Under the pieces are notes generated by a model. The model saw nothing but the letters and a program-made list of their open reading frames with translations, was not told the DNA's origin and did not search any database. Position numbers and translations under genes: made by a program. A stretch of DNA of 64,000 nt from Spirochaetia bacterium. GTDB lineage: Bacteria; Spirochaetota; Spirochaetia; CAKZLE01. The stretch's first letter is position 1. Each line of letters opens with the position of its first letter. Shown here piece by piece: positions 6,101-60,390 of this stretch. The stretch is taken from the NCBI GenBank assembly GCA_963677595.1, contig OY782041.1, positions 448,001-512,000 of the forward strand, in the 5' to 3' direction.

Positions 6101-7999
6101 CTATTTCAGAAGCTTGAGGTCGTTCTCCATACCCTTCTGTGCGAAGAATCGTGGTGAAGCGAACCAGTTGTCATCTGCAGCAGCTTCAACAGTACCGAGG
6201 AACTTGTCACCCATCATGAAGCCCTTGATCAGGTCAACTGAGTAGGATGACTTCACTCGTGAAGCGATCTCGCTCTTTGAGAGTCCAACACCTCGTGAGA
6301 GGAATCCGCCGACATCATAAGCTCGGTAAGCGTTGAGGACTACCGTATAGGTCTGGTCTTTCTGGAACTTCTCAGTCGATCCGTCAGCCTTGATGAAGGT
6401 CTTGATGTTGACCTTGTCGCCGGCAGGTTTCTTGACGTCTACGACGTAGTTGATTCCAGCAGCGCTGTCGAAGTTGTAGTAGTCGAGTCCGCCGAGGAGG
6501 TTGTCGTTGATGGTCTTCATCACGTTGAACCAGTTAGCGTATGAGTACTCGAGGTATGCATCGATCTCAGCACCAGTCATCTCTCCGGTATAGAGCCATG
6601 TCTGGTTGCTTTCCAGCCCGAATGCTTCCATCACGTAGAGGGCGTCACGAACAGTGATCGGTCCCTTCTTCAGGGTGATGTTGGCTACTGGAGGAGCAGC
6701 GAATGAGATCTGTGCACCAGTCATCTGCATCTGCAGTGTGTGCATGATATCGACCATAGCGGAGTCGCCGAAGAGTGCATCGTTCGCATCAACGTCATTT
6801 GCAAGGTATCCGATCGGTGTTGACAGGACCTTGTCGAGTTCGTCAAGAGCGAAGCCGAATGCTGCCTTGGCAACGGGGCTTACAGGATAAGCAGCCATGC
6901 TCTGTGATCGGGCTGTTACCTTTGCGACATCGAACTTCTTTGAAGCCTTGTCCCATGAGAGGACCAGGTCAGCAGTAGCTACTGACTTAGCATCTTCCAT
7001 GGCACCGACAACGTAGATAGTCTCGCCGTCAGGGTTGACAGCCTTTACAGTCTTGGTACCGGCGATCACGAGGTCGAGGCCTCGAACCTGCTCAGCAACC
7101 TTGATACCGTCATCTGAACCTTCTGTCTGGCAGAGGGCGATGATCACATCAGGATTGACCTTAGCCTGGATGACAGGAACCATCTTCTTGGCTGCGGTGA
7201 CCATGTCTGCGATCTCGATGCCTGCGCCGGCAGGAACAGCGATTGACGGAGAAGTCAGGCCCATGACTGCGATAGTCGCACCGTTTTTCTCGATCACTGC
7301 ATATCGGAATCCTTCGAAGTTCCTTCCTGACTGTGAGCTTACGACGTTAGCTCCGATCCAGGGGAAGGCTGAGTCTGAACCGATCTGGAAGAGTACTTCA
7401 GCACCCATGGCTGCATCGAGTGCGCCGGGGACTGCAGCATCATAAGCCATAGCGTTCATGACAGCAGGTACGATATTGTGTGAAGCGGGATACAGGAGGT
7501 TGTTGGCATCTACCAACAGGCTTCCCTGCATGACGTTACCACCATCCAGGAGAACGACGCCCTGTGATTTATCGCCTCGTTCCTCTTCGATGAAGGAATA
7601 GATCTGAGCAAGTGAAGTATCAGCTGCCCGACCTGTTACCAGGTTATCAGGGAATAGCTTGCCCTGAATGTCCATCGTTGCGATAACCTTGATATTGATA
7701 TCTTCAATAACTGGTTCTGGTGCCGGAGCTGGTTCCGGAGCTGGTGCCGGAGCTGGTGCTGGCTCAGGTTCTGGTGCTGGTTCCGGAGCAGGAGCAGGTT
7801 CTGGCGCTGGTGCTGGTTCCGGAGCAGGTGCCGGTTCTGGTTTCGGAGCTGGCGCAGGAGCTGGTGCTGGTTCAGCTGCCTTGACCTCTTCGGTCGCAAC
7901 CTGTACTGGCTCTTCCTCAGGAGCAGTAGTATTACATCCGGCTAGGGATATGATCAAAACTAAGCCGACCATCAAACGCAAGAGTGTTTGCTTCTTCAT
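6101..7999 (-). CDS. Lipoprotein with 2',3'-cyclic phosphodiesterase/5'-nucleotidase fold and a degenerate active site
   Basis: Lipobox LAGC, Pro/Ala/Glu linker, metallophosphoesterase-like domain, 5'-nucleotidase C-domain (YNFDSAAGINY, NAYRA); canonical metal ligands substituted. Confidence 0.75.
   Translation of the reverse strand: MKKQTLLRLMVGLVLIISLAGCNTTAPEEEPVQVATEEVKAAEPAPAPAPAPKPEPAPAPEPAPAPEPAPAPEPAPEPEPAPAPAPAPEPAPAPEPVIEDINIKVIATMDIQGKLFPDNLVTGRAADTSLAQIYSFIEEERGDKSQGVVLLDGGNVMQGSLLVDANNLLYPASHNIVPAVMNAMAYDAAVPGALDAAMGAEVLFQIGSDSAFPWIGANVVSSQSGRNFEGFRYAVIEKNGATIAVMGLTSPSIAVPAGAGIEIADMVTAAKKMVPVIQAKVNPDVIIALCQTEGSDDGIKVAEQVRGLDLVIAGTKTVKAVNPDGETIYVVGAMEDAKSVATADLVLSWDKASKKFDVAKVTARSQSMAAYPVSPVAKAAFGFALDELDKVLSTPIGYLANDVDANDALFGDSAMVDIMHTLQMQMTGAQISFAAPPVANITLKKGPITVRDALYVMEAFGLESNQTWLYTGEMTGAEIDAYLEYSYANWFNVMKTINDNLLGGLDYYNFDSAAGINYVVDVKKPAGDKVNIKTFIKADGSTEKFQKDQTYTVVLNAYRAYDVGGFLSRGVGLSKSEIASRVKSSYSVDLIKGFMMGDKFLGTVEAAADDNWFASPRFFAQKGMENDLKLLK
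7711..7876 (-). repeat. Coding low-complexity repeat (EPAPAP)n
   Basis: Imperfect tandem repeats encoding PEPAPA units. Confidence 0.9.
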
Positions 8000-40068: not shown

Positions 40069-41298
40069 TCAGAGTTTGACCTTGGCTCCTACGATGAATG
40101 CCTGGTTCTGGTTCTGGCCGGCGTAGTTGCCCATCTCCCGGCTGTAGTAGGCAGCATTGACTTCCAGGACAAGCAGGTTGAGCCCGCCGCCGAAGGTGAT
40201 GTACCCCTGGTTGATTCCGCCACGGACTTTCAGCATACGCAGCAGGTTGATCTCAGCCCCGAGGTGGATGTTCTTCCAGAGGGAGTCGTTCTCGATATTC
40301 TCCGGGTCGCTCCAGAAGGTATGGGTGTACTCAGCAGTGAACTTGAAGTCCATCAGCTCCTTCGCAGGGGAGTCATAGCCGAACCCGCCGGTGATCGACA
40401 TCGGGATCACGTAGGTGTAGCCGGAGACCGGGTCACCCGTCAGGTACTCATAGAGTTCCATCGGGCCGCTCCCAGTGGTAACGGCGGTCTCGATCTCAGC
40501 CATGGTCTGGCTGGAGGTGATGAGCTCCGTCCCCCCGATGTTGTTCACGGCAGCACCGATGGTGAAGCCCTTACCCATCTCGAGGATGGCACCGGCATCG
40601 AAGCCGTAGCCGATACTCATGTCGAAGGGGAAGGATGCGGGATCGAAATCACCGCCTTCCGAACTCTCGCTGAGGAGGCTTGCCACTTCGGTGACCGAGA
40701 GCCGCTCGGACGGCCTCAGCCGCACGATACCGCGGGCATCAGCCCCGATATGGAGCTTGCTGTTCCCCATGCCGAAGCCGTGCGATATTCCTGCAACCAG
40801 GGATGAGGTCACGACCGGGTCGACATAGAGCGAGAGGGCCGTCCCCTCCTGGGTGATCAGCATATCAACATCGGTGAGGAACCCCAGTCCAAGCCCGAAG
40901 GCCGCGAGGCCGAGCCCGATGTTCACGTTGGTGCCTACCCCGCTCTCGAGGTCAAGATCCTCCAGGATGCTCAGGATGGCATCCTCAGGGGCAGGCATCT
41001 CCTCCGACCCCTGGATCGCCTGGACCCACAGATCGATGATCTGCTCGGTCGGTACGAAATAGGGACCGACGTTCACTGAGGCGAAGGTCAGCTGTCCGCC
41101 CTTGCGGGACAAGCCTGCAGGGTTGGTGAACAGCGACTCGAACCCGCTCGCGATCGGGACGTTCGATCCGCCCATAGATTCTACGATCGGCGAGAGCAGG
41201 TAGACCGGGCTATCATCGATGACCACGGTATCTTCAGCGAAGGCAGCGCCGCCGCACAGGAATATCAGAATCAGTAGAGATCCAAGTAACTTCTTCAT
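40069..41298 (-). CDS. TraF-like outer-membrane beta-barrel protein (paralog 1)
   Basis: Signal peptide, SMGG..LFTNPAGL N-motif, GFDAG, RGGINQGYITFGGG and YYSREMG C-motifs. Confidence 0.65.
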   Translation of the reverse strand: MKKLLGSLLILIFLCGGAAFAEDTVVIDDSPVYLLSPIVESMGGSNVPIASGFESLFTNPAGLSRKGGQLTFASVNVGPYFVPTEQIIDLWVQAIQGSEEMPAPEDAILSILEDLDLESGVGTNVNIGLGLAAFGLGLGFLTDVDMLITQEGTALSLYVDPVVTSSLVAGISHGFGMGNSKLHIGADARGIVRLRPSERLSVTEVASLLSESSEGGDFDPASFPFDMSIGYGFDAGAILEMGKGFTIGAAVNNIGGTELITSSQTMAEIETAVTTGSGPMELYEYLTGDPVSGYTYVIPMSITGGFGYDSPAKELMDFKFTAEYTHTFWSDPENIENDSLWKNIHLGAEINLLRMLKVRGGINQGYITFGGGLNLLVLEVNAAYYSREMGNYAGQNQNQAFIVGAKVKL

Positions 41299-43214
41299 CA
41301 CTCACCTCCTTCCTCGCCGCTTGTCGGCATCCAGTTGGCGGGGTTATAGGTCTCCGGGTCACCCAGGACTAACTCAAGCTCCGCGTAGATGTCTGAGGAG
41401 AGGTCCACCAGGTCGAACAGATAGGGGACCTTCTCCATGGCTGCATAATCGGCCATGAGCTTGTTCGTCGGGGTCGGCACTTCACCGAAAGCCCAAGGAA
41501 TCTTCACGAATCCTGCATAGTTCATGTAGCCTGCCATGGCATTCCACATGTCATATTCGTCATAGTAGCCGCCACGGGTGATCAGGTCATACTGCAGGCC
41601 GTCGGGGAACTCGTTCCCGGCCACCCCGTCGACATCCTCGTCCGCATAGCTGTAGGGAATGGCATCAGCGACGTACTTCAGGGTGATCCTCATGAACTCA
41701 TCAGCCGTTCCCTCATCGACTGCCTCGATGGTTATCGCATCGGTCGCATTGATGAAATCGGTGAACGGGTCGATGGTGATCATACCGATCGGGTCATCAG
41801 GATCCACCTTGGCCGCATAGTCTATCACGAAGCCGATCATGGACATGACGGTCATCTTCAGCCCATCAGCGTTCAGGGCGCCCTGCGGGGTGAGGTATTT
41901 GCTCCCGAGGCCTACGAGTTCCTGCTCCCCATCAGGATCGAGCGGGTCGACAGGCTCGATGCTCAAGGTCGAGAGGAATGCCCTCCCGGCATCTGCCATT
42001 GAATCAAAGGTGTCTACCGTCACATCGAAGGTCTCGAAGTTGAGCTTCTCAGCCATGGTGTCTATGATATCCTGGACCGGGTTGGATTCGCTGCCCCCTG
42101 CTGCCTCAACATCCTCGAAGGGGTTGGGGATGTAAGCCCCGAAGGTTGCGTAGACCTGGTCTACCAGCTCGCCTGCATTGGAGATCGAGTCGGTGCCGTA
42201 ACCGAGATACCGGTCAATGAATACCAGAAGTTCCTCAAGCGTGACGCCCGGGAGGGTGTCAGTAGCAGGGATCATGTACTGGTCAAGGTCATCGGTGAAT
42301 ACATTAGCAGGATTCTGCAGTTCCACCAAGTCGATGATCGAGGACCTGTTCTCATCATTACCAGTCCCGTCAAGCTCGATACCCGGCAATGATGCGGTGT
42401 CAGTATACGGATAGAACTTCACATTCTGTTCAGCCGTATCGGATGCGATATCGCGGGTGTACATGACATAGTACTGGTCAGCTCCTAAGGCAGTATGCCC
42501 CTGGAAGACCAGCTGGATCTTCGATGCCAGGTTCGAGAGCGTCACCGTATCTGTGCTGTCAGAGTCATTGAATATGATCGTCCTCTCGGCAAGCGACCGT
42601 GACCGGAACGTACCCATCTCTCCGAGCATGGAGAGCAGGATATCTGAGGTATCCTCGACGAGGACCCCTGCGTTGTCATCGGCAGCCATCCTGACAGCAA
42701 CTGATGCCGTAGCGGCATCCTGCAGGACCTCTCTCAGGGCCTGTACCTCTTCAGCCGGCACATCGGCCTCCATCGCATCATCAACGATCTCTTTGAAGGT
42801 CTTGGTCGCGAGGGCCGCTACCTGGTCTTCATCATCGAGGTCGATATCGAGGGCTTCGAGTACACCGTCGACGATCTTGTCCAGGTTCTCGGCGACCTGG
42901 TCCAGGTCCCCTCCGCCTGCCTCGAAATCATCGAGTGTGTCATTGTCGGCCATCTCATCGATCAGGTCAAGGTAATCGGTCAACCCTTCATCGACAACCA
43001 CTGGGCCGGCACCCCCATCTCCGCTCACTACCGTGAAGCCTGTCAGGTCGATATTCCCCTCTCCGTCATCGGGGACGTCCCCCAATGCATCCTCCAGGTC
43101 ATTCTCAGAGAAGACAGGAAGCTTCTCGAAGCTAGAGAATATGTTTATGTCGCAGCTGGAGAATGCGAAAAGCAGCCCTATGAGTAAAAGGGCCAGAAAC
43201 ATGCTTTTTCTCAT
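41298..43214 (-). CDS. Large acidic lipoprotein of unknown function
   Basis: Lipobox FSSC followed by DINIF; Asp/Glu-rich; stop overlaps the start of the downstream barrel gene (TGATG). Confidence 0.7.
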   Translation of the reverse strand: MRKSMFLALLLIGLLFAFSSCDINIFSSFEKLPVFSENDLEDALGDVPDDGEGNIDLTGFTVVSGDGGAGPVVVDEGLTDYLDLIDEMADNDTLDDFEAGGGDLDQVAENLDKIVDGVLEALDIDLDDEDQVAALATKTFKEIVDDAMEADVPAEEVQALREVLQDAATASVAVRMAADDNAGVLVEDTSDILLSMLGEMGTFRSRSLAERTIIFNDSDSTDTVTLSNLASKIQLVFQGHTALGADQYYVMYTRDIASDTAEQNVKFYPYTDTASLPGIELDGTGNDENRSSIIDLVELQNPANVFTDDLDQYMIPATDTLPGVTLEELLVFIDRYLGYGTDSISNAGELVDQVYATFGAYIPNPFEDVEAAGGSESNPVQDIIDTMAEKLNFETFDVTVDTFDSMADAGRAFLSTLSIEPVDPLDPDGEQELVGLGSKYLTPQGALNADGLKMTVMSMIGFVIDYAAKVDPDDPIGMITIDPFTDFINATDAITIEAVDEGTADEFMRITLKYVADAIPYSYADEDVDGVAGNEFPDGLQYDLITRGGYYDEYDMWNAMAGYMNYAGFVKIPWAFGEVPTPTNKLMADYAAMEKVPYLFDLVDLSSDIYAELELVLGDPETYNPANWMPTSGEEGGE

Positions 43215-43381
43215 AATTCCCTCCATTCAGGATTTGTTCGTGTTCATTTCCAAGCGAAAGCAGTCTGTATCTGTATGTATTATAACCAATGGGAATAGGG
43301 ATTGTTACTGTAAAACAGGAAGATAATTTAGATAATGGCAAAATTTAACCTATTACTAAGCAAATACTTAGCAACTGATCA

Positions 43382-43409
43382 TAAAAATAGCCGCCCGGTA
43401 GGGGCGGCT
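43382..43409 (-). terminator. Intrinsic terminator
   Basis: AGCCGCCC/GGGCGGCT stem followed by ATTTTT on the minus strand. Confidence 0.75.
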
Positions 43410-43435
43410 TGATCATCATTCTTGTGAATCTCTTA

Positions 43436-44677
43436 TCAGATCTTGACCTTGGCGCTGATCATGAGCTCTTCTGAGAGATCCTCATAGGTCATCCTGCTCT
43501 TTACGGCCTCGTCGACATAGTCGCCGAAGTAGGTAGCATTGACTTCGACAAGCAGCAGGTTGATCCCCGCACCTGCGGTGATCCTGCCCTTGTTGAGCCC
43601 GCCCCGGACCTTGGCGATGCCAAGCAGCGAGACCTCTGCACCGAGCTGCAGCTGTTCGATCAGGGTAGGCTCTTCGATGACAATGGACTTATCCGCGGCC
43701 AGGAGGGTGTCTAGGTCCAGCTCATAGTCTGCTGCGAGCCTGAGCCCCATCATGTGCCCCCTCGGGGTCTCATAGCCCAGCCCGACCTTCGCAGTCATCG
43801 GGAAGGTCAGGACGCTCCCGTTCGCAACCAGGTACTCGTAGAGTCCATCAGGCTCAAGAGTCTCCATCATATCCCCGATATTCTCAGCGGTATCTCCAAT
43901 CCAATACAGGTCCATATCGCCGATGTTCTCGACGGAGATGCCTGCAGAGAGCCCCCCAGGCAGGTCCAGGATCGCTCCTGCGTCGAACCCATAGCCCGCT
44001 GCGAGTTCAGCATCGGATTGCGAGAGGGTATCGTTAATCAATGCATACTTAAGATCAGTCTCCTGGAAGGTGCCCATGGCAAGGCCCTTCAGGTTAGCCC
44101 CGATACTCAGTGAGGCAGGTCCCATGTCGAACTTATGTGATAACCCGAGTACTGCCTCACTCTTCAGGATACCCTCGAATTTGATAGAATCCATATCATA
44201 AGCCTGAGAATAGATGTTGTACTCCGTGATGATCCCTGCACCGAGACCGAAGGCGCTCAGCCCGGCACCGACGTTACCGCCGATCGTGATCCCGTCCTGG
44301 ATCCCGAGTTTTGACAGGTCAGCGAAGAAGGCATCCTCATCCCCGTTGTACCAGACATCATAATGATCGATGATATCATCGAAGTCATAAACCGTATCAG
44401 GGTCCAGACTCTCCATCGGTGCGAATACCGTTGGATCCGGGATGAGGTCAGCATAGAAGTTGAGTGATGTGAACACCAGTTCCCCACCCCTCCTGCTGAA
44501 GCCTGCAGGATTGTTGAACAGGGCTTCGAACCCATTGGAGATTGCCGTCGAGGCGCCGCCCATGGCTTCTACCTCAGTGAACATGAACTTTTCCAGCGTA
44601 TCAAGAGTTGCTGAACCTGCGAAGACCGGTGTTACGATCAGCAGGCACACTATCATCATAATCATGAACTTTTTCAT
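43436..44677 (-). CDS. TraF-like outer-membrane beta-barrel protein (paralog 2)
   Basis: Signal peptide, AMGG..LFNNPAGF, GYGFDAG and RGGLNKGRITAGAG motifs; ends SAKVKI. Confidence 0.65.
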   Translation of the reverse strand: MKKFMIMMIVCLLIVTPVFAGSATLDTLEKFMFTEVEAMGGASTAISNGFEALFNNPAGFSRRGGELVFTSLNFYADLIPDPTVFAPMESLDPDTVYDFDDIIDHYDVWYNGDEDAFFADLSKLGIQDGITIGGNVGAGLSAFGLGAGIITEYNIYSQAYDMDSIKFEGILKSEAVLGLSHKFDMGPASLSIGANLKGLAMGTFQETDLKYALINDTLSQSDAELAAGYGFDAGAILDLPGGLSAGISVENIGDMDLYWIGDTAENIGDMMETLEPDGLYEYLVANGSVLTFPMTAKVGLGYETPRGHMMGLRLAADYELDLDTLLAADKSIVIEEPTLIEQLQLGAEVSLLGIAKVRGGLNKGRITAGAGINLLLVEVNATYFGDYVDEAVKSRMTYEDLSEELMISAKVKI

Positions 44678-44819
44678 CTCGTTTCCTCTCAATTGTGTGT
44701 TGTGTATAGAGTGTCAGTGCAAAGCAGTCTATCCTGTAGCAAGAATATCTGTTTGCTATACAAACCGCAAAGCAGTAAGATAGTTACAGGTTCTACTCGA
44801 AGATAGCACTACAATGTAC

Positions 44820-45396
44820 CTATAACACCATATTAGGAGAGTCAGGAATGCTTGTCAAATGGTTTTTCCGGAGGTTCTTCCCTTTAACAGAAATCACGCA
44901 ATTCAAAGATATCCTTGCCGTGCAGCCGCATGCGGACGATCTTGACATCGCGCTCGGCGGCACGATCGCCATGCTCGCAGAGAGGGGGGCGAGGATCACC
45001 TGCGTAACGGTCACCGATGATATCGGACAAGGTCCTGAGGGCACGCAGAGTATACGTCGCAAGGAGCAGGAGGAGGCAGGGAAGATATCGGGAGTGAGTG
45101 ACTTCATCTGGCTTGGGTACCCCGATGCGGGGTACTGGGACGAGGAGGCCTTGCGGAGGGATCTCATGAGGATCATGAACAGGGTGAAGCCGGACCTCAT
45201 CCTCTACCCTGACCCCACCCTCACCTTCGAGGCCCATCCAGACCACCTGAAGACCGGGAGGGCAGCCGCCGCAGCCGCCCTGCTCTTTCCCTATTTCTCG
45301 TCCGACGGAGCGGCTGCCGTCCCCCCGCCTGCCGGGGAGAGTACCATGGACTCAAGGGTGACCGTCGGCATGTACTTCTCCGACAAGCCGAACACC
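44820..45396 (+). repeat. Left copy of 577-bp direct repeat (target-site duplication)
   Basis: Matches 47555-48131 at offset 2735; ORF-track translations are identical in three frames. Confidence 0.93.
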
Positions 45397-45486
45397 CCGG
45401 TCTTTTTACCAGAATTAGCGAGTATGCCCATTTTCCCCATTTCAGCCCTGTCTAGGGCTATTTTTTTGGCCATTACGAATTTTTAA
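44848..45486 (+). pseudogene. Truncated PIG-L deacetylase copy fused to IS-derived codons
   Basis: First 183 aa identical to 47583-48344; tail PVFLPELASM... read from the IS left end. Confidence 0.88.
45444..45467 (+). terminator. Intrinsic terminator inside the IS left end
   Basis: AGCCCT-gtct-AGGGCT followed by ATTTTTTT. Confidence 0.7.
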
Positions 45487-45516
45487 AGAAATATTACTGT
45501 GCTACGTTGTACCACG

Positions 45517-45545
45517 TTGCGCCACGCTACCAAATGTGTTACACT
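45517..45545 (+). promoter_or_regulatory. Sigma70 promoter of the transposase
   Basis: TTGCGC-17-TACACT with TGn extension; AGGAGG RBS before ATG 45567. Confidence 0.7.
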
Positions 45546-45566
45546 ATATTACACAGGAGGTAGCCC

Positions 45567-47459
45567 ATGTATGTCTCCGTTATCCCAGAACACGCAACCG
45601 GCAAGCATCTGATGCAGTACGTCACAAGTACCCGCAAAGGGAAAAAGACTAAGAAAACCACGGAGGAAACCATCGGCTATGTCGAGGACTTCCTTGATCG
45701 CTATGATGACCCGGTCGCTCACTTCAAAGCAGAGGCCAAGCGGATCACAGCAGAGCGGAAAGCTCAGCAGAAGACTATAGGGGTTGAACTCCAACCCGAT
45801 GCACGGCTTCCCTTCGATCCGGATACCCACAGCTTCTCCCGTGAATTCAACATCGGCCATGCGGCGATCAGTCAGGTATTCCACACCCTTGACCTCCACA
45901 CCTTCTTTGATCGGCGCCGGATAAAGCTTGATGTGCAGTTCAATCTGACCGCTGTCATGAAACTCCTCATCTATGAGCGTATTCTGGCTCCTGCCTCCAA
46001 ACGCGCTACCTGGAAGTCTCGAAGGCGATACTTTGACAAGATGGACTTCAATCTCAATGCGGTATACCAGACCCTTTCTCACATCAACCCCTGGACTGAT
46101 GACCTGATCGCTCACCTGCATGCGAAGATGGTAGAACTCTATGACCGGGATACCACCCTCATGTACTATGATGTGACCAACTACTACTTTGAGATCGACG
46201 AAGCTGATGATTTTCGCATAAGGGGAATCTGCAAGGAGCACCGTCCGTTACCGATCGTGCAGATGGGGCTGTTCATGGATGAACAGGGCTTCCCGGTGTC
46301 CTTTGACTTGTTTCCCGGTAATGTCAATGACTGCCTGACCTTTGAAGCAATGAGCGAGCATGCCAGAACCCTGTTTGAGGCCAAGCATCTGATCTTCGTA
46401 GCTGACAAGGCCATGCTCACGGGGAACAACATCGCAGATGTGATCCTCCATCATAACGGGTATGTCTTCAGCAAGTCGGTACGGGGCGGGACGAAAAAAC
46501 TCAAGCAGGCGGTCAGGGATCCTCATGGCTATCTGCGGTTTGCGGAAGACGGGAAGCTCATTGCGCCTGGTGACAACGAGACGGCAGTCTGGTCCAAGTA
46601 CAAGATCCTTGATGAGCAGAAACCCACCTATGTGACGAACACGGACGGCAAGCGGGTAGCCTCCTCAGGTGTTGGCCACTACCAGATCATCTATTGGTCA
46701 CGTGCGTATGACAAACGAGCCAAAGCGCAGCGGCTGGAAGCGGTAGAGCATGCGCTTGATGCATCATCACGGCAGAGTAAGGAAGTCATCGACAGTAACT
46801 ACGGGAAGAACAAGTATCTGATGACCATGGTCTATGATCCCCAGACCAAGAAGTATACCGACAACTATAAGGCCAAGACGGAGTTTGATGCTGCCAAGCT
46901 TGAAGAAGATGAGTCGTTTGACGGATTCTATGTCATTGAGACCAATGTGACGGGGCTCAGACCGTTTGTCGATGCCAGGGGACATGAGACCGGTGAACTC
47001 GAGCCTGCGTTTGCCACACCTCACCGCTGGCTCAAAGAAGAGGGCATGCTGCAGCTCAACCGGCCGATTGGCCCTCTGGATATTATTACGATGTACCATG
47101 GGCTGTGGAAGATCGAACAGTCCTTCAGGGTCACCAAGAGTGAGTTGGATGCCCGTCCGGTCTTTCTGTCTTTAGAGGATCGAATTCATTCCCACTTCCT
47201 TACCTGCTTCATCGCTCTGCTCATCCTGCGTATCCTGGAGCATGAACTCGATCATGAATTCTCAACAGAGCAGATAGGGACTTCCCTGAATCAGGCGAAT
47301 GTCGCAGAGATCACTGGGGCAACGTACATGACTTTGCAGTACGATGAAGTCCAAAAGGCTTTGAAGGAAAAGATGGGAATCCCGTTCGGCATGAATGTAT
47401 ACTCGAGAGCTGCGATCAAGAAGATGATCGCTGAGACGAAAAAAAACCGGAAACGGTAG
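45567..47459 (+). CDS. IS1634-family DDE transposase
   Basis: YYDVTNYYFE, GICKEHR..IVQMGL, FVADKAM, LWKIEQSFRVTKS and ARPVF..EDRIHSHFLTCFIAL motifs. Confidence 0.92.
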   Translation: MYVSVIPEHATGKHLMQYVTSTRKGKKTKKTTEETIGYVEDFLDRYDDPVAHFKAEAKRITAERKAQQKTIGVELQPDARLPFDPDTHSFSREFNIGHAAISQVFHTLDLHTFFDRRRIKLDVQFNLTAVMKLLIYERILAPASKRATWKSRRRYFDKMDFNLNAVYQTLSHINPWTDDLIAHLHAKMVELYDRDTTLMYYDVTNYYFEIDEADDFRIRGICKEHRPLPIVQMGLFMDEQGFPVSFDLFPGNVNDCLTFEAMSEHARTLFEAKHLIFVADKAMLTGNNIADVILHHNGYVFSKSVRGGTKKLKQAVRDPHGYLRFAEDGKLIAPGDNETAVWSKYKILDEQKPTYVTNTDGKRVASSGVGHYQIIYWSRAYDKRAKAQRLEAVEHALDASSRQSKEVIDSNYGKNKYLMTMVYDPQTKKYTDNYKAKTEFDAAKLEEDESFDGFYVIETNVTGLRPFVDARGHETGELEPAFATPHRWLKEEGMLQLNRPIGPLDIITMYHGLWKIEQSFRVTKSELDARPVFLSLEDRIHSHFLTCFIALLILRILEHELDHEFSTEQIGTSLNQANVAEITGATYMTLQYDEVQKALKEKMGIPFGMNVYSRAAIKKMIAETKKNRKR

Positions 47460-47554
47460 GGACGTACTACAAGTTTTTTTAGCCAGGTGCTGACCTATTG
47501 TGTTGTATTGCAATAGGTTAGCGCCGTCATTTCCTAAATTGGTAAAAACACAGG

Positions 47555-48131
47555 CTATAACACCATATTAGGAGAGTCAGGAATGCTTGTCAAATGGTTT
47601 TTCCGGAGGTTCTTCCCTTTAACAGAAATCACGCAATTCAAAGATATCCTTGCCGTGCAGCCGCATGCGGACGATCTTGACATCGCGCTCGGCGGCACGA
47701 TCGCCATGCTCGCAGAGAGGGGGGCGAGGATCACCTGCGTAACGGTCACCGATGATATCGGACAAGGTCCTGAGGGCACGCAGAGTATACGTCGCAAGGA
47801 GCAGGAGGAGGCAGGGAAGATATCGGGAGTGAGTGACTTCATCTGGCTTGGGTACCCCGATGCGGGGTACTGGGACGAGGAGGCCTTGCGGAGGGATCTC
47901 ATGAGGATCATGAACAGGGTGAAGCCGGACCTCATCCTCTACCCTGACCCCACCCTCACCTTCGAGGCCCATCCAGACCACCTGAAGACCGGGAGGGCAG
48001 CCGCCGCAGCCGCCCTGCTCTTTCCCTATTTCTCGTCCGACGGAGCGGCTGCCGTCCCCCCGCCTGCCGGGGAGAGTACCATGGACTCAAGGGTGACCGT
48101 CGGCATGTACTTCTCCGACAAGCCGAACACC
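47555..48131 (+). repeat. Right copy of 577-bp direct repeat
   Basis: Starts immediately after the right IR; matches 44820-45396. Confidence 0.93.
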
Positions 48132-48344
48132 TTCATCCGCTGCGGGAAGTACCGGGGGCAGAAATACCGCGCGATCGCGAAGCATTCCTCACAATTTGAT
48201 GAAAAAGGATTCAAATCCCTCAGGTTGTATGATACCTTTCATGGTAGGTACACCGGTCTTTTTCGGGGTTCGCCATATGTGGAAGGGATAAAAGTCCTGC
48301 CGGCGACCCTGCTGCACTGTATACCTGAAGCGAGTAGGTATTAA
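47583..48344 (+). CDS. PIG-L/LmbE family deacetylase (intact copy)
   Basis: QPHADD, RRKEQEEA, HPDH and KHSSQF motifs. Confidence 0.88.
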   Translation: MLVKWFFRRFFPLTEITQFKDILAVQPHADDLDIALGGTIAMLAERGARITCVTVTDDIGQGPEGTQSIRRKEQEEAGKISGVSDFIWLGYPDAGYWDEEALRRDLMRIMNRVKPDLILYPDPTLTFEAHPDHLKTGRAAAAAALLFPYFSSDGAAAVPPPAGESTMDSRVTVGMYFSDKPNTFIRCGKYRGQKYRAIAKHSSQFDEKGFKSLRLYDTFHGRYTGLFRGSPYVEGIKVLPATLLHCIPEASRY

Positions 48345-58409: not shown

Positions 58410-59330
58410 ATGGATAATAAGCTACTGTTCCCGTTACTCGCAGTCATCACCGGAACCCTCATCACAATCATGGTGCAGTTCAACACCCTGCTGGCAGATG
58501 TGGTTGGGCTCGTCTTCTCTACCTTCGTCATACAGCTGGCAGGCCTGCTGCTCTCAGTCGTCGTCATATGGGTCTCGGCCCCCCCGAAGGGGCAGCCGGT
58601 CAACCCTCTCCTGCGTCTCGGCGGGATCCTCGGGGTCGGCATGATCCTCATCAACATCCTCTGCTTCCAGAACATCGGGGCCTCACTTACCCTGGCCGTT
58701 TCGCTGCTTGGCAGAACCCTCACCTCCCTTGCTTATGACCTGACGGGGTTCATGGGCATGACGAAGTACCCTCTTGAGAAGAAGAAGATCGCCGGGCTTG
58801 CCGCAAGCATCCTCGGCATCCTCCTGATGGCAGGGAGGGTGACGGATGCCAGCGGCTATATGCTTCTGGCATTCCTGGGGGGTTCCATCCTGGCCACACA
58901 GCTGATCATCAATGCGAGATTAGCCCTGAAGATCGGCCTGAAGCGCTCCACGCGGAACAACTTCATCGTGACTGCAGCCTGTTCCCTCATCCTGGTCATC
59001 TTCCTGAAGATAGATATGGCTGCAGGTTTCCGTGCACTGCTCTCGGTATCCATGTTCCATGCACTCGGTTCGGGGTGGCTTGGCGTCATCGTCGTCCTGC
59101 TCTCCAGCTGGATTATCCCCAAGATCCCGACGGTCTACAGTTCCCTGCTCCTCTTCTCGGGCCAGTTCCTCTCAGCACTGATCATTGATGCCGTCCGTTT
59201 CGGGTCGGTATCAGCAGGGCAGCTGGGCGGGGTTCTCCTCATCCTGGCAGGGATGCTGTGGAATATACGGGTGGATCTGATCGGGGTCAAGCAGAAGGAA
59301 GGACTCCAGCAGCAGCCTGCCCAAGAGTAA
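58410..59330 (+). CDS. DMT (YdcZ-type) transporter, paralog 1
   Basis: Two YdcZ-like repeats; start reassigned to ATG 58410. Confidence 0.8.
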   Translation: MDNKLLFPLLAVITGTLITIMVQFNTLLADVVGLVFSTFVIQLAGLLLSVVVIWVSAPPKGQPVNPLLRLGGILGVGMILINILCFQNIGASLTLAVSLLGRTLTSLAYDLTGFMGMTKYPLEKKKIAGLAASILGILLMAGRVTDASGYMLLAFLGGSILATQLIINARLALKIGLKRSTRNNFIVTAACSLILVIFLKIDMAAGFRALLSVSMFHALGSGWLGVIVVLLSSWIIPKIPTVYSSLLLFSGQFLSALIIDAVRFGSVSAGQLGGVLLILAGMLWNIRVDLIGVKQKEGLQQQPAQE

Positions 59331-59457
59331 CGACAGCCCTGTCACCAGGGCTGCCCGGCATATAGTGGAGGGTGTGATGATCATGTTCGCACAGCACCCG
59401 GGTATTACACTGGAAGCTGGTGACAGATACAGGTTAAAAGGGATATACTGATTCCCT

Positions 59458-60390
59458 ATGGATAGACGAATCGGGTTTCCGGTCATGGCAATACTTACCG
59501 GGACCCTCATCACGGTCATGATACAGTTCAATACCCTCCTCGGGGGAGCGGTAGGTCTCTTCTTCTCCATCCTGGTCATCCAGCTCTCAGGGCTGGTGCT
59601 CGCTGAGCTTGTCATCCTCATCCTGAGACCAGAGAGAGGTGAACCGGTCAGTCCATGGCTCAGGATGAGGGGACTCATCGGTGTTGCCATGGTCCTCTCT
59701 AACACCCTCTGCTTCCAGCAGCTCGGGGCATCGCTGACCCTTTCCGCGGTGATCCTCGGGCAGTCGACAACCTCACTGGCCTATGACCTGACAGGGTTTC
59801 TCGGGCTGACGAGGTATCGGTTCAACAGGGAGAAGATCATCGGTTTCGCCCTGAGCCTGGCGGGCATACTCCTGATGGCAGGGAGGATGACAGAGCACTG
59901 GACCTTCATCCTCCTCGCACTCTTCACCGGGACCCTCACGATCACCCAGATGGTCATCAACGCCAGACTCGCCGGCAGGATCGGGCTGATGCGGGCGACC
60001 CGCAACAACTTCATCTGGGCAACCGGGTTGTGCATCCTCTTATGCCTGGCACTGGGCATACCCCTGACGGACGGGTTCCGTTCCCTCAAGGATGTCCCCC
60101 TGCACTACAGCCTTGGCGGCGGCTGGCTCGGGGTCATAGCCGTAGCCTTGAGCAGCTGGATCGTCCCGAAGATACCGACAGTCTACAGCTCACTGCTCCT
60201 ATTCTCAGGGCAGATCACCATGGCACTGATCCTTGACGCGTTCAGGTTCGGCTCAGTATCGATCGGGCAGCTCGGGGGCGTTCTGCTCATACTGGCAGGG
60301 ATGCTGTGGAATATACGGGTGGATGTGAAGAAGGCTGCTAACGGATCCGGTAGCGGGGAGGAGTTTCAGCAGCAGTCTCCTCAAGAGTGA
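59458..60390 (+). CDS. DMT (YdcZ-type) transporter, paralog 2
   Basis: Homologous to 58410-59330 (TGTLIT, PKIPTVYSSLLLFSGQ, GMLWNIRVD shared). Confidence 0.8.
   Translation: MDRRIGFPVMAILTGTLITVMIQFNTLLGGAVGLFFSILVIQLSGLVLAELVILILRPERGEPVSPWLRMRGLIGVAMVLSNTLCFQQLGASLTLSAVILGQSTTSLAYDLTGFLGLTRYRFNREKIIGFALSLAGILLMAGRMTEHWTFILLALFTGTLTITQMVINARLAGRIGLMRATRNNFIWATGLCILLCLALGIPLTDGFRSLKDVPLHYSLGGGWLGVIAVALSSWIVPKIPTVYSSLLLFSGQITMALILDAFRFGSVSIGQLGGVLLILAGMLWNIRVDVKKAANGSGSGEEFQQQSPQE

Follow-up and report, generated by a model that had tools for sequence, protein, structure and literature searches.

The window, as we call the whole analysed stretch of 64,000 nucleotides from a Spirochaetia bacterium (contig OY782041.1, positions 448,001 to 512,000), contains an insertion sequence (IS) enclosed by two long direct repeats. 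The features at this locus are as follows (window coordinates):

43436..44692, minus strand, divergent gene with a weak TraF_2 match below cut-off; the same neighbour is found in the same-genus genome G002
44753..44781, plus strand, predicted native PIG-L promoter (TTGCTA-17-TAAGAT), not included in the duplication
44820..45396, plus strand, left copy of the 577-bp target duplication, identical to 47555-48131
44830..44858, minus strand, predicted promoter of sigma70 type (TTGACA-17-TAATAT), directed leftwards over the right-end join at a distance of 10 bp
44848..45486, plus strand, truncated PIG-L deacetylase frame (ORF reading), 212 aa, with 183 native and 29 IS-derived codons
45397..47554, plus strand, IS1634-family insertion sequence, 2158 bp; five genome copies with 99.95-100% identity
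45397..45411, plus strand, left terminal inverted repeat, pairing 13/15 with the right end
45444..45459, plus strand, terminator-like hairpin in the left end of the IS, weak (1 found, 0.6 expected in shuffles)
45517..45545, plus strand, transposase promoter predicted by promoter scoring, TTGCGC-17-TACACT with TG extension
45567..47459, plus strand, DDE transposase, 630 aa, NF033559 match; D202, D280, E517
47490..47519, plus strand, weak predicted outward promoter candidate in the right end of the IS, score 6.9
47540..47554, minus strand, right terminal inverted repeat, pairing 13/15 with the left end
47555..48131, plus strand, right copy of the 577-bp target duplication, identical to 44820-45396
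47565..47593, minus strand, duplicated copy of the leftward promoter (prediction), pointing into the IS, antisense to the transposase
47583..48344, plus strand, intact PIG-L-family deacetylase, 253 aa, PF02585 E 1e-24

An earlier sequence-only reading described the flanking copies as apparently identical and free of gaps. Pairwise comparison bears this out: the copies agree at 577 of 577 positions, adjoin the element without a gap, and their identity ends at the repeat limits. The 15-bp inverted repeats named there are present, but imperfect, since two of the 15 bases do not pair. The repeat holds 28 bp of upstream DNA and the first 183 codons of the PIG-L gene, and the truncated copy upstream and intact copy downstream are as that reading had them. 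Genomes G001 and G003 carry one intact PIG-L gene each, with no transposase within 1.5 kb.

The element belongs to the IS1634 family, as had been claimed, and works like IS1634 and IS1549. Its transposase scores 299 bits against the family profile NF033559 in a profile search (cut-off 100). It is encoded by a single large ORF, the DDE triad has a long spacer before the glutamate, and all three catalytic residues are invariant in 37 aligned relatives. The motif Y510-x2-L513-x3-E517-x6-K524 lacks the arginine of YREK, which is usual for the family according to a 2008 review (PMC2266710). Both element ends fit C-----YT, the length is slightly above the 1500-2000 bp typical of the family, and the duplications of the five copies (128-707 bp) are of the long variable type that sets IS1549 and IS1634 apart. 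The predicted transposase fold (mean pLDDT 86.5) has its best solved-structure match in the Tn5 transposase (E 7.5e-10), but with a low TM-score of 0.35/0.46 and 12% identity; for the IS50 group the same review gives duplications of 8-9 bp (PMC2266710). Because the five near-identical copies have distinct flanks, they imply that the element has probably moved recently. A phylum-wide search of 300 other genomes returned no match at E 1e-40.

That the duplication is genuine, made by the transposase and of the IS1634/IS1549 kind, is supported by the remaining copies. The genome is a single contig of 4.33 Mb, and the five copies of the element have repeats of 577, 707, 128 (one mismatch), 564 and 213 bp (three mismatches, one gap). 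A second element, whose protein is 31% identical, is present in two copies with repeats of 298 and 94 bp. The comparison with other copies, proposed earlier as a check for short duplications, thus found none: all 7 copies of the two related elements carry repeats of 94-707 bp, and these copies account for 7 of the 12 direct-repeat pairs (at least 35 bp, within 8 kb) in the genome. Long repeats at all seven copies speak against an assembly artefact, as well as against recombination between IS copies having short duplications; so do the diverged bases in three of the seven repeats, the agreeing structures in other hosts and in annotated plasmids, and the short-duplication elements that read normally in the same assemblies. 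In favor of an artefact, the whole 3.3 kb repeat-IS-repeat structure is spanned by no record in the sequencing runs searched. Short contigs of run X1 traverse both junctions without differences, by 30+28 and 22+30 bases, which falls short of a 31-base bridging rule. X1 may be the source sample of the assembly; it differs from the window at 44817 and at three positions in the IS. Altogether, we consider an artefact or such recombination extremely improbable.

Several neighboring observations concern repeats and insertions in the same material. Loose ends at 47555-47560 in runs X1 and X2 reveal additional insertion sites of the element, whose right flanks also start with N-T-A. A pair of element copies in the same orientation, separated by 14.9 kb (G000:C1:572036-591290), could act as a composite transposon. 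The genome also has close long repeats without the element: copies of 1495 bp enclose 6.2 kb (G000:C1:942414-951601), two exact copies of 1417 bp stand in tandem (1685545-1688378), and copies of 992 bp enclose 5.1 kb (3325533-3332644).

The sequence-only reading placed the duplication at or beyond the range known for IS1549 and IS1634. It does exceed the 8-514 bp given in the 2008 review, which states that no model exists for such duplications (PMC2266710), but in this clade 577 bp is not exceptional. Our survey started from 334 loci with 301 transposase frames (redundant) and gave 181 unique sites with both ends. Flanks of 1 kb were available to either side at 99 of these, 73 with a repeat of at least 12 bp and 26 with at most 3 bp and no automatic call; two of the 26 are due to miscalled ends. 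After curation, in which one miscalled 46-bp row (L316) was dropped and five hand-called rows were added, 81 sites from 43 elements remained. Their repeats range from 35 to 858 bp with a median of 129 bp, and 64 are exact; 19 measure between 80 and 99 bp and six exceed 514 bp; lengths reach 707 bp in the same genome, 704 bp in the same genus and 858 bp in a distant relative. The sites are not independent (43 elements from related hosts), and the insertions seen have passed selection. Repeats of 4-34 bp are absent among the 81 sites (p 8e-6 under an exponential). This floor is not absolute because L381, an annotated copy on a plasmid and not part of the set, has a repeat of only 13 bp, inside a polymerase footprint. 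On that plasmid, from Ligilactobacillus salivarius (L381:2251-4334), the repeat begins at a box resembling -10, next to the leader gene of erm(C).

Typical members of the family behave differently. They share with the present element the NF033559 match, the C-----YT ends and the Y-x2-(not R)-x3-E-x6-K motif, but other NF033559-positive elements in the same hosts make duplications of 5-7 bp at 17 sites, close to the 5-6 bp that the review gives for the family (PMC2266710). Of seven transposases from these short-duplication elements, six group on a long branch of their own; the seventh is unplaced.

At three loci, related elements stand in tandem with target repeats between the copies. At L116 two insertions share one right-join base and have repeats of 60 and 314 bp; at L316 the joins lie 23 bp apart, the repeats measure 69 and 145 bp, and the second ends inside the first element. 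For these two arrays, repeated insertion at a single promoter is the better reading; L152, the third, is ambiguous. The arrays thus do not demonstrate the recombinational excision or amplification for which the earlier reading saw a substrate in the repeats.

The two joins of the element differ. At the right end the signature is W-T-A-T-A (W being A or T), with T at +2 in 71, A at +3 in 60 and A at +11 in 50 of the 81 sites. The left end prefers G|A, with G at -1 in 47/81 and A at +1 in 51/81. A 5' A is thus favored at both joins (48/81 and 51/81), as expected if each is a strand-transfer event. Extended microhomology was not seen at the left join (0 bp at 34 sites, 1 bp at 36, 2 bp at 7 and 3 bp at 4), and G is not in excess at -2 (16/81).

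With genes called by a simple ORF rule, the right join lies outside ORFs at 62 of 77 sites, while 17% of random positions do so, and the left join lies inside an ORF at 44. Where only one join is in an ORF, the intergenic one is the right join in 36 cases against 7 (p 9e-6); both fall into one ORF at only four of the 77 sites. Of the genes closest to the right join on its left side, 48 point away from it and 19 do not, ten sites having none. We predicted promoters by scoring with sigma70 weights and a threshold of 6. A leftward promoter across the right join reaches this score at 42 of 80 sites and a rightward one at 13, while controls matched for trinucleotide and AT content give 11% and 9% of 1226. 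The lean is the same in 37 of 42 elements, and a strict consensus count gives 26/80 leftward against 7 (controls 5.8% of 2432). Near-join -10 hexamers are accompanied by TTG at -35 in 19 of 57 cases (controls 6%) and by a TG extension in 15 of 57 (7%). The promoter signal is strongest where the join falls between about 6 bp before and 12 bp after the point at which the -10 box ends. Scores of 7.3-12.2 were obtained for all five copies of the element itself (null 6.4%). One of these copies is inserted in the -10 box preceding a tRNA-Gly, and Rfam on six own sites identified only that tRNA. Among close relatives (at least 50% identity) the promoter is leftward in 11 of 14 and rightward in none, while the short-duplication elements reach a score of 6, in either direction, at 5 of 17 sites. 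The same plan is seen in an annotated copy on a Carnobacterium plasmid, with TTGACA-17-TATATT at its join and a truncated beside an intact DeoR gene. The -10 hexamer alone fails as a cue of direction (40 bottom against 36 top across the join); only full promoter scores provide it.

At about half of the sites, then, a predicted sigma70 promoter faces away from the element, with the right-end join falling within its -10 box or immediately downstream of it; the left join lies tens to hundreds of bases upstream. From this predicted geometry we infer that RNA polymerase takes part in target choice. An alternative dispenses with polymerase: the transposase would prefer bendable TATA steps in AT-rich DNA, and selection would remove other insertions. 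The right join is indeed AT-richer than the left (0.68 against 0.62), 38 of the 80 sites stay below the promoter threshold, and surviving insertions are selected. However, scores in the matched controls are far lower, the signal runs in one direction and extends to the -35 TTG, and selection alone would not decide which end of the element is intergenic. We find this alternative quite unlikely.

Replication might be involved instead, if the transposase were brought to the fork by the beta clamp and the lagging-strand gap set the length of the repeat. Another IS1634 transposase binds the clamp, as reported in PMC4549789 (on the route see also PMC5371812), all five own copies face the fork, and the flank skew is negative at 44 of 71 sites (p 0.057). 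Still, a pattern scan of 40 transposases found the C-terminal clamp motif, a weak motif and accessory trait, in none of them, and the second element has a copy in the opposite orientation. The skew bias follows from targeting the promoters of leading-strand genes, and the -10 signal is left unexplained. Insertion at the fork is consequently a very remote explanation.

We propose, with a probability of roughly 0.6, that the repeats arose when the DDE transposase attached the ends of the element to opposite target strands, each at its own site and far from the other. Firstly, at a sigma70 promoter engaged by RNA polymerase, the template strand would receive the right end at a position from about -10 to +6. 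Secondly, the left end would be attached to the opposite strand at a point farther upstream, where the DNA loops or wraps back. Host repair or replication would then unwind and copy the stretch between the joins. The targeted gene would retain both its promoter and the DNA upstream, any gene interrupted by the left join would be rebuilt on the far side, and the second promoter copy would fire antisense into the element.

In promoter coordinates the left joins lie at -46 to -714, 13 of 42 between -77 and -101, and looping or wrapping might produce lengths that peak at 80-100 bp with a long tail. According to a preprint (10.1101/2020.05.13.070375), polymerase makes contact with DNA from -76 to +18; it also cites upstream wrapping of 50-100 bp or more. 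This would fit the peak, though it is not evidence for the mechanism. A rigid loop is disfavored because it would give periodicity: lengths show no helical period of 10-11 bp (best period 9.3-11.2, jitter p 0.34-0.60), and neither do promoter coordinates (Rayleigh p 0.08-0.80). The 13-bp repeat at a -10 box counts against it too.

The main rival to the double join begins with a single join, of the right end at the promoter; the 3' end set free would prime strand-displacement synthesis in the upstream direction, and the left end would be attached wherever the branch had arrived. The direction fits, helical periodicity is absent, a 13-bp repeat exists, and a shifted exponential describes the lengths about as well as a lognormal (log-likelihoods -491.6 and -490.8). 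Yet a plain exponential is rejected (-507, in line with the missing short repeats), and an extra offset, for example a polymerase footprint, has to be added. We hold this sequence of events to be unlikely, though less so than the other alternatives. As a tentative extension of the double join, to which we give somewhat less than even chances, this clade may use the open complex of RNA polymerase as a target scaffold, one active site attacking the template strand in the bubble and the other attacking upstream DNA wrapped or looped round the polymerase. If true, this would explain the variable duplications of IS1634 and IS1549 and present a promoter-copying, nearly lossless and self-silencing route of insertion.

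At the present locus the likely target is the predicted promoter of the divergent gene (44830..44858) and not the deacetylase gene, because right-end joins are the promoter-anchored side and left joins are variable; the PIG-L gene was presumably caught by the variable left end. The promoter has the same spacing in G002, with TATGAT. Another leftward candidate at 44747 lies outside the repeat, and the divergent gene may be driven from either; the gene and its upstream DNA are left untouched by the insertion. The predicted PIG-L promoter is kept in G002 as TTGCTA-17-TATCAT. Since in the window it lies outside the repeat, the intact PIG-L copy appears to be cut off from it and probably relies on read-through or on the weak outward candidate of the IS, which could serve it. 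The insertion, described earlier as non-disruptive, is so for the coding sequence only.

The suggested comparison with an empty site did not materialize: no empty allele was found in the same species, and G002 offers no clean one, its PIG-L gene being split over two contigs. That gene breaks (end of L330, start of L331) within a few bases of codon 183/184, where the window repeat ends, and neither contig end has IS letters; the break may be chance or a second insertion.

The textbook expectation for DDE transposases is that the target strands are cut a few bases apart. Long duplications were already known from IS1634 of Mycoplasma mycoides and IS1549 of Mycobacterium smegmatis, which likewise have an IS1634-family DDE transposase and long variable direct repeats; compared with their description in the review, the repeats here reach further (707 bp, and 858 bp in relatives). 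What we add is the asymmetry of the joins and the oriented promoter anchor, which make the puzzle of the duplications directly testable. Our literature search, with the original IS1634 and IS1549 descriptions and most subscription journals outside its scope, found no paper on promoter anchoring in the family and none on the mechanism of long duplications. A proposal of "target wrapping" may exist, which the search did not recover. PMC3053259 and PMC11448079 add nothing on mechanism.

Oriented insertion beside sigmaA promoters, with polymerase contact proposed, is described in PMC3942029 for TnGBS, ISLre2 and ISKra4 (p-MULT). The present element resembles p-MULT in its oriented promoter targeting but is no member of that group. 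Transposases of p-MULT elements are Mutator-like, whereas here the IS1634 model and a Tn5-like fold rank first; those elements insert 15-17 bp upstream of the -35 box, whereas here one join falls in the -10/start region and the duplication takes in the entire promoter.

The reading of genomes is affected as well: such insertions break short-read assemblies, and what they leave behind is a truncated gene, an intact one severed from its promoter, and a promoter in duplicate. Elsewhere in the window, three minus-strand genes of a little-known family adjoin the insertion (40069-44692), two of them with similar ends and one with the weak TraF_2 match. A predicted lipoprotein of 632 aa (6101-7999, minus strand) has a Pro-Ala-Glu linker encoded by 12-bp tandem repeats (7701-7899), and two tandem paralogous membrane-protein genes (58427-60390), 1048 bp apart, are 72-81% alike in parts.
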